Assembly (NCBI GenBank): GCA_963823495.1
Contig: CAWGLV010000001.1
Coordinates: 1,283,878 to 1,347,877 of the forward strand
Direction: 5' to 3'
DNA length: 64,000 bases
From: an uncultured Microthrixaceae bacterium
GTDB taxonomy: Bacteria > Actinomycetota > Acidimicrobiia > Acidimicrobiales > DATDAH01
Each line of letters begins with the position of its first letter. The stretch's first letter is position 1. The notes below the pieces were generated by a model. The model had not been told where the DNA came from and searched no databases. It was given only the letters and a program-made list of their open reading frames with translations. This document shows positions 7,701-10,700 of the stretch, piece after piece. The position numbers and the translations under genes were made by a program.

Positions 7701-10700
7701 AGTGGTGATCACGGGGGCGGCGCTCGGCCTGCCCGGGACCGAACGGGTCTTCGACGACGCCAACATCGGCCGCATCCTCGACGGCGAGTCGTTCATCGAC
7801 ACGATCCCCGTCGGGCTGCGCAACGCCATCGTCGACAAGCACATCACCCGGCTGGTCAAGGGCGAAGGGGGAGGCGGCAGCTTCGAGACGATCGAGTCGG
7901 CTGACGAGGTCATCAAGCTGGCGGGGCGCCGCGGTGCCTTCGACCTCGTCGAGGACTTCGGCTTCCCCGAGGAGCGCCTCGGTGCCCTCGACACCACCAC
8001 CGAGCTGGCCATCGCCGCCGGTCTCGACGCCCTTCGTGACGCCGGCATCCCCCTCGTCATGCGCTACAAGACGACGACCACGGGCAGCCAGCTGCCCGAG
8101 CGCTGGAGCCTGCCGTCCGGCCTGCGTGACGGCACGGGGGTGATCTTCGCCTCGGCCTTCCCGGGCTATGACCGCCTGGTCGACGAGGTGAGTCGCTTCG
8201 AGCAGGACCACGCCCGCCATCAGCGCCGCGACGCCCTCGTACACCTCCGGTCCCGCATGAGCGACACCGACTCGGTCGTGGCCGAGATCGACCACATGAT
8301 CCACGAGGTCGAGGCCGAGATCGACCGCGAGGCCTACCAGTACGACCGCCACTTCATCTTCAAGATCCTCTCGATGGGGCACTCGCAGTTCGCGGAGCAC
8401 ATCGGCGCCCGCGGCCCGAACACCGCGGTGAACGCCGCCTGCGCCAGCACGACCCAAGCCGTTGCGGTGGCCGAGGACTGGATCCGCAGCGGGCGCTGCG
8501 AGCGCGTCGTGGTCATCGCCGGTGACGACATCACCACCGACGCCCTCCTGCCCTGGATCGGCACCGGCTTCCTCGCCTCCGGCGCGGCGGCCACCGACGA
8601 GGTCGTCGAGAAGGCGGCCCTGCCCTTCGACCGCCGCCGCCACGGGATGATCATCGGCATGGGCGCCGCCGCCCTCGTCGTCGAGAGCCGGGCTGCCGCC
8701 CGCGCCCGGGGCCTCGAGCCCATCTGTGAGGTGCTGGGCTCGGTCGCGGCCAACAGCGCCTTCCACGGCACGCGCCTGGACGTGGGCCACATCGGCCAGG
8801 TGATGGAGGACCTCGTCGCCGGCGTGGAACGGGACTGGGGCGTGGACCGTTCCGAGATCGCCCGGGAGCTGGTCTTCGTGTCCCACGAGACCTACACACC
8901 GGCCCGCGGCGGGAGTGCCCAAGCGGAGGTCGACGCCCTCCGCCGCGTCTTCGGCGGGGCCGCCGACGACATCGTGGTGGCCAACACGAAGGGCTTCACC
9001 GGCCACGCCATGGGCGCGGGGATCGAGGACGTCGTCGCCGTGAAGGCCCTCGAGACCGGCGTGGTGCCGCCCATCGCCAACGTGACCGAAGTCGATCCCG
9101 ACCTGGGTCGGCTCAACCTCTCCCGGGGCGGGCGCTATCCGGTGCGCTACGCGCTGCGCCTCGGCGCCGGCTTCGGGTCCCAGATCAGCCTGTCGCTCAT
9201 GCGGTGGGTGCCCACCGCCGACGGGTCCCGGCCCGAGCCCGACGAGCTCGGGTACGGGTACCGGGTGGTCGACGAGGCGGCCTGGACCGAATGGCTACGG
9301 CGCGTGAGCGGCTACTCGGCTCCGGAAGTCGAGATCGCGTCCCGCACGCTGCGGGTCATCGACCAGGGCCCGTCGGAGTCCATCGACGAGCCGGCCCGGC
9401 CCACGCCCGCGGCAGGCGTCGTGCCCGCACCGGCCGCCGCTCCGGCTCCGGCTCCGGCTCCGGCTCCGGCTCCGGCGTCGCCGCCGGCTGGGGCGCCGGA
9501 TGGTGACGGGGTGGTGGATCGGGTGTTGGCGGTGGTGGCCGACCAGACGGGGTATCCGCCGGACATGTTGGATCCGGAGTTGGACCTGGAGGCCGATCTG
9601 GGCATCGACACGGTCAAGCAGGCGGAGACGTTCGCGGCGATCCGTGAGGAGTACGGCATCGAGCGGGATGAGTCGTTGTCGCTGCGGGACTATCCGACGT
9701 TGGCCTCGGTGGTCGAGTTCGTGCGTGAGCGCGCCCCCGGCCTCGACGCCGCACCCGCACCGGCCGCCGCTCCGGCTCCGGCTCCGGCTCCGGCGTCGCC
9801 GCCGGATGGGGCGCCGGATGGTGACGGGGTGGTGGATCGGGTGTTGGCGGTGGTGGCCGACCAGACGGGGTATCCGCCGGACATGTTGGATCCGGAGTTG
9901 GACCTGGAGGCCGATCTGGGCATCGACACGGTCAAGCAGGCGGAGACGTTCGCGGCGATCCGTGAGGAGTACGGCATCGAGCGGGATGAGTCGTTGTCGC
10001 TGCGGGACTATCCGACGTTGGCCTCGGTGGTCGAGTTCGTGCGTGAGCGCGCCCCGGCCTCGACGCCGCACCCGCACCGGCCGCCGCTCCGGCTCCGGCT
10101 CCGGCGTCGCCGCCGGATGGGGCGCCGGATGGTGACGGGGTGGTGGATCGGGTGTTGGCGGTGGTGGCCGACCAGACGGGGTATCCGCCGGACATGTTGG
10201 ATCCGGAGTTGGACCTGGAGGCCGATCTGGGCATCGACACGGTCAAGCAGGCGGAGACGTTCGCGGCGATCCGTGAGGAGTACGGCATCGAGCGGGATGA
10301 GTCGTTGTCGCTGCGGGACTATCCGACGTTGGCCTCGGTGGTCGAGTTCGTGCGTGAGCGCGCCCCCGGCCTCGCCAACCCGCCGGCTGCGGGTGACACC
10401 CCCGCCGACACCGGGGATGGCGCGGCCGCCGGCGAGGACCGGACCACCGAGACCCCGCTCGGTGACGACGAGGCGTCGGCCGCCCTGCCCCGCCGCGTCG
10501 TGAGCAGTGTCCTGCGTCCCGGGCTCGACCAGTGCCGGGAGACCGGGATCGAGCTCGGCCCCGAGAGCCGGGTGCTGGTGATGCTCGACGACGGCGGGGT
10601 GGGCTCCTCGCTGGTCAAGAAGCTCGAAGGGCTCGGCGTGGACGTCCTGGCCGTCGACGGCGCCCCGAGCGCGGAGGACCTGATCGATCGCGTCGAGAAG

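Follow-up and report, generated by a model that had tools for sequence, protein, structure and literature searches.

Textbooks give the attachment of phosphopantetheine to a conserved serine as a rule, and to our knowledge the arm is on serine in every carrier protein that has been studied. A locus in a 64,000-nucleotide stretch of DNA from an uncultured Microthrixaceae bacterium (the window) raises the question of whether threonine can take the place of this residue. A first-pass annotation made from the sequence alone had reported that all three carrier domains of one gene have Thr at the Ser position, and offered four explanations: a co-encoded Sfp-type phosphopantetheinyl transferase (PPTase) may accept Thr, another residue may be used, the domains may be non-canonical or inactive, or the manual alignment may be off by one residue. 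Here we weigh these options.

Threonine at the attachment position

The attachment column is occupied by the codon ACG (Thr) in each of the three carrier repeats (Table 1). Positions 9601–9640 read ggc atc gac ACG gtc aag cag gcg gag acg ttc, and this string recurs around the second and third Thr codons. The annotation placed all three codons correctly, but the third is read in a frame other than that of the first two, because of the one-base deletion between ACP2 and ACP3 (Table 1). Thr does occur in each repeat, but these are not three independent cases: the ACP core of the three repeats is 100% identical in DNA, and the window therefore provides one independent data point.

When one carrier repeat was compared with PF00550 (PP-binding), it scored 38.3 bits (cut-off 20.8), and the alignment, a check that the annotation had proposed, placed Thr and no Ser at the attachment column. 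In a phmmer comparison with ACPs of known structure in the PDB, the window Thr fell on the modified Ser of Aquifex ACP (DLGADSLDVVE), and the same was true of mitochondrial ACPs. A 39-sequence profile yielded this register too when compared with, among others, PigH and E. coli AcpP. The AlphaFold model of the carrier domain (pLDDT 93.5) contains helices at residues 4–17 and 38–52, a short turn, and a helix at 68–78; it superposes on solved ACPs with TM scores of 0.79–0.85 and shows the four-helix fold of ACPs, in which the attachment residue lies at the start of helix II; here Thr38 is the first residue of this helix. Given the agreement of phmmer, the profile and the model, the suspected shift of one residue did not occur. 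The fungal-FAS register (GKSTVQNE), which would put Asp at the Ser position, is contradicted by every alignment and by the model; we rejected it because its Asp is the canonical Asp preceding Ser.

Thus, the window domains are bona fide ACPs with Thr on the phosphopantetheinyl-Ser position, and the acceptor Ser of the canonical (D/H)S(L/I) motif is replaced by Thr in 3/3 repeats. A six-frame search of the window with an ACP profile and with E. coli ACP detected no other carrier domain, including any of the Ser type.

Table 1. Features of the Thr-type cassette in the window (positions are those of the window).
Feature	Position	Strand	Basis
Acyl-CoA dehydrogenase family flavoprotein, 554 aa, first cassette gene	2975..4639	+	Pfam Acyl-CoA_dh N, M, C
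PfaA-like synthase, first frame	4702..10050	+	Pfam; NCBIfam TIGR02813 PfaA, 700 bits
KS1	~4720-6117	+	Pfam; C214/H349/H388 present
AT	~6475-7365	+	Pfam; GHSLG and HAFH motifs
KS2	~7699-9411	+	Pfam; NAACAS, VSHETY, GFTGHA motifs
ACP1	9517-9723	+	Pfam
Thr codon ACG, ACP1 phosphopantetheine-attachment position	9610..9612	+	Sequence, alignments, AlphaFold model
ACP2	9835-10041	+	Pfam
Thr codon ACG, ACP2 attachment position	9928..9930	+	Sequence, DNA alignment of repeats
One-base deletion in C-run (C4, not C5); frame shifts between ACP2 and ACP3	10046..10050	+	DNA alignment of three repeats
Synthase continuation, shifted frame	10140..12989	+	Pfam PP-binding, KR, PKS_DH_N, PS-DH
ACP3	10146-10352	+	Pfam PP-binding
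Thr codon ACG, ACP3 attachment position, shifted frame	10239..10241	+	Sequence, ORFs, DNA alignment of repeats
KR	~11292-11861	+	Pfam; motif YSAAND
PS-DH	~12135-12929	+	Pfam; DH motif HRIDG...P
Single-chain acetyl-CoA carboxylase, BC-BCCP-ACC_central-CT, 1888 aa	12877..18543	+	Pfam
Sfp-type 4'-phosphopantetheinyl transferase, start codon uncertain	18572..19303	+	PF01648, 72 bits, two stretches

The synthase and its gene cassette

The carrier domains are part of a PfaA-like synthase with the order KS-AT-KS-ACPn-KR-DH. The ORF at 4702..10503 encodes nonsense past ACP2, and ACP3, KR and DH are encoded by the ORF at 10140..12989. Catalytic residues are kept in KS1, AT, KS2, KR and DH.

Homologous loci have a conserved gene order: acyl-CoA dehydrogenase, synthase, multidomain acetyl-CoA carboxylase and Sfp-type PPTase. 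In 64 of 81 loci, the synthase gene is directly preceded by the dehydrogenase gene. The product of the latter, whose best NCBIfam matches are acryloyl-CoA reductase and relatives of prolyl-PCP dehydrogenase, could serve as an enoyl reductase or desaturase of the carrier-bound chain. The carboxylase gene, found between the synthase and PPTase genes in 57/81 loci, presumably serves as a dedicated supply of malonyl-CoA. Linkage of the PPTase gene was observed in 61/81 loci, many of which are truncated, and in P0298 the PPTase is fused to the synthase. The cassette has no carrier besides the Thr-type ACPs.

The co-encoded Sfp-type PPTase of the first-pass annotation is real. It has the features of group II enzymes, namely a pseudo-dimer fold of ~230 aa with two ACPS half-domains and both the Mg-binding and the catalytic E/K motifs (GCDLE, with D108 and E110; WSAKESALK, with E151 and K155). 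Residues D108, E110, W147, K150, E151 and K155 are invariant in the family (22–30 homologues). Its sequence gave only weak matches to AcpS half-domains when compared with the PDB. The AlphaFold model (pLDDT 93.3) had human AASDHPPT, Sfp (4mrt, TM 0.73), PptT and PcpS as top Foldseek matches. Presumably this enzyme primes the Thr-type ACPs. All characterized Sfp-type PPTases that we know of modify Ser, and comparison of sequence motifs revealed no feature that would account for acceptance of Thr, the motifs being canonical.

Relationship to known systems

With PfaA of the Shewanella, Photobacterium and Schizochytrium type, the window synthase shares tandem ACPs with Ala/Pro-rich linkers in a protein that resembles KS-AT-ACPn-KR-DH, the motif context TGYP..ML....LE.DLGID and a dedicated PPTase encoded nearby. 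However, PfaA ACPs read DLGIDSIKRVEI, with Ser where the window ACPs have Thr, and the PfaA motif LGIDSIKRVEI is absent from the window carriers. The two classes of domain cluster apart, the best cross-class identity being ~0.4 compared with ~0.77 within the Thr class. A second KS with Cys-His-His is inserted before the ACPs, and matches to the PfaA model TIGR02813 (700 bits plus 213 bits) are below its cut-off of 1010, with this extra KS between AT and ACPs. No homologues of PfaB, PfaC or PfaD were found among the window ORFs scanned; the cassette partners are the acyl-CoA dehydrogenase and the carboxylase rather than pfaB/pfaC/pfaD.

The Type R secondary lipid synthase consists of a single pfaA homologue, KS-MAT-CLF-ACP(3-6)-KR, with a downstream PPTase, and occurs in Acidobacteria, Chloroflexi and Elusimicrobia (Shulse and Allen 2011, PMC3098273). 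In Koribacter, the acetyl-CoA carboxylase lies between synthase and PPTase, and the window arrangement matches this; the words serine and threonine do not occur in that paper (PMC3098273). Judged by domain order and gene order, the window cassette appears to be a Type R secondary lipid synthase, and the source of its close homologues, Acidobacteriota and Chloroflexota, is the one expected for Type R. Three features go beyond the earlier description: conservation of the cassette extends to the upstream acyl-CoA dehydrogenase, the active-site Cys of the "CLF" is retained here, and the taxonomic range is much wider than that given for Type R in PMC3098273.

The closest solved structure by profile is the tandem ACP of PigH (PDB 5y08, E = 1e-21), a doublet that has in common with the window carriers the motif TGY....L....LE.DLG.D, but has Ser (DLGVDSI, DLGIDSV) instead of Thr. 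The cluster PPTase resembles Sfp, human AASDHPPT, PptT and PfaE in its pseudo-dimeric fold (TM 0.68–0.73 to 2byd and 4mrt) and in the group II motifs GxDxE and W-S-x-K-E-S-x-x-K, whereas its identity to solved PPTases is only 14–24%.

A Thr at this position has been made artificially in E. coli ACP. As the first-pass annotation had stated, the Thr prevents normal modification: AcpS does not act on the S36T protein, which also fails to sustain growth (PMC3340395). Both cases have Thr in place of the attachment Ser; however, S36T is an artificial mutant, whereas the natural Thr-type ACPs are conserved and have their own Sfp-type PPTase.

Conservation of threonine across the family

We surveyed homologues for the residue at the attachment column, another check suggested at the outset. 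Among 1,077 HMM-aligned carrier domains, it was Thr in 911, Ser in 128 and something else in 7; of these seven, five were degenerate with the whole motif lost and two were truncated. Thr-type relatives number over a thousand and come from at least nine phyla of bacteria. In the first two homologue searches, the matches listed are limited to those shorter than ~1.75 times the query, so that the many apparent stand-alone ACPs are probably for the most part pieces of synthase genes that are frameshifted or incomplete, as in the case of L001. A search of a plasmid collection found one true cassette, in a chromosome-sized record of Nonomuraea gerenzanensis; other matches there included Ser-type relatives, such as Azospirillum DSIKQVEI. 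Cultured carriers of the Thr-type cassette include Nonomuraea gerenzanensis and Amycolatopsis.

Within Thr-type cassettes, Thr was found in 304/304 ACP domains (83 loci), always in the motif DLG(I/V)DTVKQ. In the 303 motif-matched domains (82 sequences, i.e., 81 loci and the window), all four Thr codons are used (ACC 147, ACG 139, ACT 9, ACA 8), and Ser, although one substitution away from Thr, does not occur (0/303). Invariant carrier residues are G18, E31, L34, G35, D37, T38, K40 and Q41. The feature goes beyond chance, as the counts of 304/304 and of Thr versus Ser family-wide indicate, and Thr and the surrounding motif are under very strong purifying selection. The same counts bear on the idea that Thr is an artefact, be it a misalignment, a sequencing error or a pseudogene peculiarity of the window. 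The frameshifted gene and the identical copies might invite it, but four independent alignment and structure methods agree, and the same Thr occurs in hundreds of genomes and thousands of metagenomic proteins; the family data refute this idea, and we give it practically no weight.

A few close relatives are of the Ser type, and Ser and Thr interchange between near kin. For example, ACP1 of P0323 is Ser-type beside two Thr-type ACPs in the same cassette (L085), and the ACPs of P0303 read DSVKV, yet their closest relatives are Thr-type. The attachment residue and the one after it, a known PPTase-contact position, mostly occur as T-V (710) or S-I (94), with T-I (7) and S-V (6) being rare. This pairing is best read as volume-compensating covariation.

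It could be that the Thr-type domains are never modified: they would be structural, scaffolding or regulatory repeats, a free holo-ACP (e.g., FAS II AcpP) would act in trans, and the PPTase would serve another substrate. Modification of Thr has no known precedent, E. coli S36T is dead, and degenerate ACP-like domains exist at the array ends of some relatives. Yet in these degenerate domains the whole motif is gone. If unmodified, the Thr-type domains would have no need of an invariant hydroxyl and of DLG.DTVKQ, which are more strongly conserved than in ordinary ACPs. With 1–7 copies and Ala/Pro linkers, the arrays of the family resemble the tandem ACPs that function in PUFA synthases. In addition, the PPTase is either fused to the synthase or tightly linked to it, and the cassette lacks another carrier. 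We thus consider this scenario quite improbable; with purifying selection on Thr and its motif in the sole carriers of an otherwise intact synthase, the suggestion of inactive or non-canonical domains is unlikely to hold.

Predicted modification of threonine

From the ACP fold, the position of Thr, its invariance across the family, the intact catalytic domains and a linked PPTase with canonical residues, all of which are observed, we infer that the cluster PPTase probably attaches phosphopantetheine to the Thr of predicted working ACPs. Acceptance of Thr by this enzyme is the best supported of the four options raised initially, at the level of inference. The three domains would serve an iterative PfaA-like lipid synthase as acyl carriers, and the Sfp-type PPTase, encoded two genes downstream, would place the 4'-phosphopantetheine arm on the Thr hydroxyl of DLGIDTVKQ, where Ser is usual. 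Malonyl-CoA would come from the acetyl-CoA carboxylase of the cassette itself, and the AT domain would load malonyl units onto the holo-ACPs. The chain growing on these would then be offered to KS1/KS2, KR and DH, with the upstream acyl-CoA-dehydrogenase-like flavoprotein as a probable further partner.

We counted in favor of Thr modification the almost hydroxyl-only column, the Ser/Thr interchange, the T-V/S-I covariation, the linked PPTase and the absence of another carrier in the window. Counted against it was that a secondary alcohol is bulkier and less nucleophilic. In addition, that Thr is accepted as well would not simply explain why most of the clade strictly excludes Ser. The only direct precedent, E. 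coli ACP S36T, is negative (PMC3340395). No report of Thr phosphopantetheinylation, known Thr-type homologues included, and no characterized member of the family was found in the full-text literature searched, whose coverage leaves out key PPTase reviews.

Thr might also be phosphopantetheinylated without any special adaptation, if Sfp-type PPTases accept the scaffold with either Ser or Thr and if Thr was fixed in the ancestor of the clade and kept by linked motif constraints. The canonical PPTase motifs fit this model, as do the Ser-type ACPs inside the clade, even within one synthase. However, the lack of Ser in all cassette-locus domains across at least nine phyla, at the distance of a single mutation, argues for selection for Thr, and the AcpS precedent shows that some PPTases reject Thr (PMC3340395). 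The model therefore seems unlikely to us.

A different chemistry, such as direct O-acylation of Thr, another prosthetic group, or an arm on another residue, is suggested only by the missing precedent for Thr-phosphopantetheine. Against this possibility, a canonical PPTase that has its CoA/Mg catalytic residues intact is conserved next to the carriers, KS-type Claisen chemistry normally requires thioesters, and the domain has no other conserved nucleophile. The only conserved residue among Ser, Cys and Lys is K40 in the motif, which makes use of a different residue unlikely. Altogether, we regard such chemistry as very improbable.

Returning to phosphopantetheine on Thr, a broader proposal can be made, though tentatively and with doubt. 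A large and ancient clade of PfaA-like lipid synthases, present in at least nine phyla, might use O-(4'-phosphopantetheinyl)-threonine, which would be a protein modification not yet on record, installed by a co-inherited Sfp-type PPTase. The combination of Thr with the smaller Val at +1 and an invariant Lys-Gln might make these carriers orthogonal to housekeeping AcpS and ACP-hydrolase, and so insulate the cassette, with its own carboxylase, reductase and PPTase, from primary fatty-acid synthesis.

Implications

The Ser rule underlies PROSITE/UniProt annotation, antiSMASH-style calls of active and inactive carriers, and carrier-protein tagging. If Thr is indeed modified, a new post-translational modification would be added, and thousands of carrier domains would be at risk of being mis-called as inactive. 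The ACP/PPTase pair would be a ready-made orthogonal tool for engineering and labeling. The Thr-type carriers point to an undescribed, threonine-linked form of the phosphopantetheine cofactor. Such a carrier family with its own PPTase would also offer an entry to an abundant, uncharacterized lipid pathway found in soil members of the Acidobacteriota, Actinomycetota, Chloroflexota, Gemmatimonadota and Myxococcota.

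Threonine at the attachment position of the carrier domains

The window (72.7% G+C) contains three tandem acyl carrier protein (ACP) repeats within its PfaA-like synthase gene. The first-pass annotation had placed Thr codons at 9610-9612, 9928-9930 and 10239-10241, in the column of the phosphopantetheinyl Ser, and this was borne out by reading the window sequence. It had also feared a one-residue misalignment and had raised the register of fungal fatty acid synthases; both are ruled out because HMM, profile and structure comparisons agree on the register. One repeat matched Pfam PP-binding with 38.3 bits (cut-off 20.8), which bears on the misalignment, and three further comparisons bear on both. 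A phmmer search against all PDB chains aligned the window Thr with the modified Ser of Aquifex ACP (DLGADSLDVVE) and mitochondrial ACPs (DLGLDSLDSVE), and a profile built from 39 diverse family members gave the identical register against PigH, AcpP and AcpM. In the AlphaFold model of the ACP (pLDDT 93.5; helices 4-17, 38-52 and 68-78), which matches solved ACPs with TM scores up to 0.85, Thr38 begins helix II, the canonical attachment position.

Thr is indeed present in each of the three domains, as first annotated, but this is one observation only, since the DNA of the ACP core (~250 bp) is 100% identical among the repeats (9440-10400), which differ only in Ala/Pro-linker length (GCTCCG units). 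Such identity points to a recent event, duplication or gene conversion, or to assembly collapse. Repeat 2, otherwise perfect, has C4 versus C5 in a homopolymer, and because of this one-base deletion ACP3-KR-DH lies in a different frame from KS-AT-KS-ACP1-ACP2. In homologous loci the synthase is a single continuous gene. The deletion probably arose as a homopolymer error in sequencing or assembly, or it may be a very recent inactivation.

Features of the window (positions in nt)
Feature	Position	Strand	Remarks
MMPL-family transporter and CrtI/phytoene-desaturase-like FAD oxidoreductase	1-2915	minus (transporter)	transporter partial; both upstream of cassette
Cassette	2975-19303
Acyl-CoA-dehydrogenase-family gene			554 aa; upstream of synthase
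ORF KS-AT-KS-ACP1-ACP2	4702-10503
KS2	7699-9411
Tandem carrier repeats	9400-10400		n = 3
One-base deletion, repeat 2	~10046-10050
ORF ACP3-KR-DH	10140-12989
Single-chain acetyl-CoA carboxylase (ACC)	12877-18543		1888 aa; downstream of synthase
PPTase	~18572-19303		downstream of synthase
CoxMSL-type molybdenum hydroxylase set	20973-30942		FAD, 2Fe-2S and MoCo subunits; with CoxG, CoxE (VWA), CoxD-like AAA ATPase, XdhC
MFS transporter region and apolipoprotein N-acyltransferase (LNT_N + CN_hydrolase)	37571-41257	minus	1228-aa ORF; either a fusion or two genes sharing one frame

The synthase and its cassette

Read through the frameshift, the synthase has the order KS-AT-KS-ACP-ACP-ACP-KR-DH; its top NCBIfam match is PfaA, under the cut-off. 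On inspection all catalytic motifs were intact: Cys/His/His in the first ketosynthase (KS1), GHSLG and HAFH in AT, Tyr in KR and HxxxGxxxxP in DH. The second ketosynthase (KS2) keeps its Cys-His-His triad (NAACAS, VSHETY, GFTGHA), and the Cys was found in 91/91 homologues covering the region. No further carrier domain was detected in a six-frame search of the 64-kb window. The ACC carries all components on one chain, including an 'ACC_central' region typical of eukaryotic ACCs; such an all-in-one chain is unusual for bacteria. The cassette looks like a self-contained fatty-acid/polyketide factory. The CoxMSL-type set, hydrolases, a P450 and others are ordinary genes filling the remainder of the window, and the MMPL and CrtI-like genes were not kept beside the cassette in the other 81 loci.

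In domain and gene order the cassette is a Type R secondary lipid synthase, a cluster type known but uncharacterised, described as KS-MAT-CLF-ACP(3-6)-KR with a PPTase (Shulse and Allen 2011, PMC3098273). In Koribacter, an ACC gene lies between synthase and PPTase (PMC3098273). That paper makes no mention of serine or threonine. KS2 of the window, the domain called 'CLF' there, retains the catalytic triad and probably works as another active ketosynthase, not as a chain-length factor. According to a 2023 metagenome survey, more than 92% of KS domains of the PUFA type belong to no clade whose product is known.

The cassette is syntenic in Acidimicrobiia, Solirubrobacterales, Acidobacteriota, Gemmatimonadota, Chloroflexota, Myxococcota, Bacteroidota, Calditrichota and Gammaproteobacteria (loci L002-L082). 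The order dehydrogenase-synthase-(ACC)-PPTase was kept across these 81 loci, many of them truncated, with the dehydrogenase in 64/81, ACC in 57/81 and PPTase in 61/81; ACP copies ranged from 1 to 7 per locus. Among cultured organisms, Nonomuraea gerenzanensis carries the complete cassette with a single Thr-type ACP, and the cassette is present in an Amycolatopsis strain (L047). ACPs of the Thr type are not confined to this architecture: one example is the metagenomic protein P0298 (3,667 aa; N-terminal extension, KS, ACPs, AT, KR, DH), in which a PPTase domain is fused at the C-terminus.

Threonine and serine across the family

A word-biased search with one ACP yielded 763 proteins, the best 120 of which had 126 Thr-type (DT) and 0 Ser-type (DS) motifs. 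KS2 plus the ACPs gave 1,155 proteins (E <= 1e-10) with 293 DT and 0 DS motifs, from Acidobacteriota, Actinomycetota, Myxococcota, Bacteroidota, Calditrichota and Proteobacteria. The proteins listed by both word-indexed searches were all below ~1.75x query length, and for this reason many 'stand-alone ACPs' are probably fragments from frameshifted long-read assemblies (e.g. locus L001). Exhaustive phmmer over 1.84 billion cluster representatives returned 5,933 matches, 700 at E <= 1e-30; the best 150 proteins contained 429 DT domains and 124 DS domains of the classical PUFA-synthase type (DSIKRVEI or DSIKKAQ). When every retrieved domain was taken into a family-HMM alignment, with no motif filter, the attachment column held Thr in 911, Ser in 128 and other residues in 7 (five degenerate terminal ACP-like domains with the entire motif lost, two truncated). 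Thr at this column is real, robust and a trait of the whole family, not a local oddity.

One additional degenerate ACP-like domain, its DTVKQ motif fully decayed, was seen in each of P0263, P0265, P0270, P0294 and P0336. Decayed motifs include DLGIDAVKQRAV and DLGVKDADLQ. Such carrier-like domains, likely without activity, are helpful as a counterpoint to the conserved Thr-type domains.

A scan of 185,579 species, each represented by a single genome, for LG[IV]DTVKQ[AV] found at least 599 stretches, the closest among the matches listed being from Acidimicrobiales and Acidimicrobiia MAGs (85-90% identity). A motif scan of the 81 loci plus the window gave Thr at 303/303 attachment codons (ACC 147, ACG 139, ACT 9, ACA 8), from which Ser is one substitution away. 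A later HMM alignment, with 4 loci added, counted 304 Thr-type domains in 83 loci; Ser domains occurred only in three loci chosen for being Ser-type.

The attachment residue covaries with its neighbors. Thr partners Val at +1 and Lys-Gln at +2 and +3, and Ser partners Ile and Lys-Arg or Lys-Lys: T-V and S-I pairs numbered 710 and 94, versus 7 T-I and 6 S-V (P0241-P0385), and Gln was at +3 in 715/717 Thr domains. The Thr methyl with the Ile-to-Val exchange looks like volume compensation; compatibility with Sfp is known to depend on the +1 residue (PMC11744666). With the motif masked, the two types still clustered apart, a Thr-type domain being nearest neighbor for 717/717 Thr domains. Two exceptions were found. 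ACP1 of P0323 (L085, a cassette with upstream dehydrogenase) is Ser-type (DSIKQAEAF), its two adjoining ACPs being Thr-type, and P0303 has DSVKV ACPs with Thr-type closest relatives. From these, the site tolerates hydroxyl amino acids only, with Ser and Thr swapping between close relatives.

The linked PPTase and a possible mechanism

PPTase homologues numbered 6,116 among scored candidates (E <= 1e-5). Invariant residues include G106, D108, E110, W147, K150, E151 and K155, which belong to the Sfp-type enzyme motifs GxDxE and W-S-x-K-E-S-x-x-K. The AlphaFold model (pLDDT 93.3) matched human AASDHPPT, Sfp (4mrt, TM 0.73), PptT and PcpS; sequence search alone found AcpS-like half-domains only.

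We consider it probable that the linked Sfp-type PPTase phosphopantetheinylates Thr, so that carriers would be primed with Thr replacing Ser. No feature accounting for Thr acceptance was seen in the PPTase sequence, and E. coli ACP carrying the S36T replacement is left unmodified by AcpS and does not sustain growth (PMC3340395). That Thr is modified by a PPTase with no special adaptation is rather unlikely. The domains might instead be unmodified or decoys, which is slightly less likely still, or the Thr site might support an alternative chemistry, which is very improbable. Each of these two is opposed by the invariant hydroxyl residue, by a synthase that is intact and lacks any other carrier, and by the linked or fused PPTase. 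Full-text searches of open-access papers turned up neither threonine phosphopantetheinylation nor the Thr motif, and an earlier mention elsewhere is possible. Depending on the answer, a textbook invariant would be overturned or a large group of carrier domains would prove to be non-canonical.
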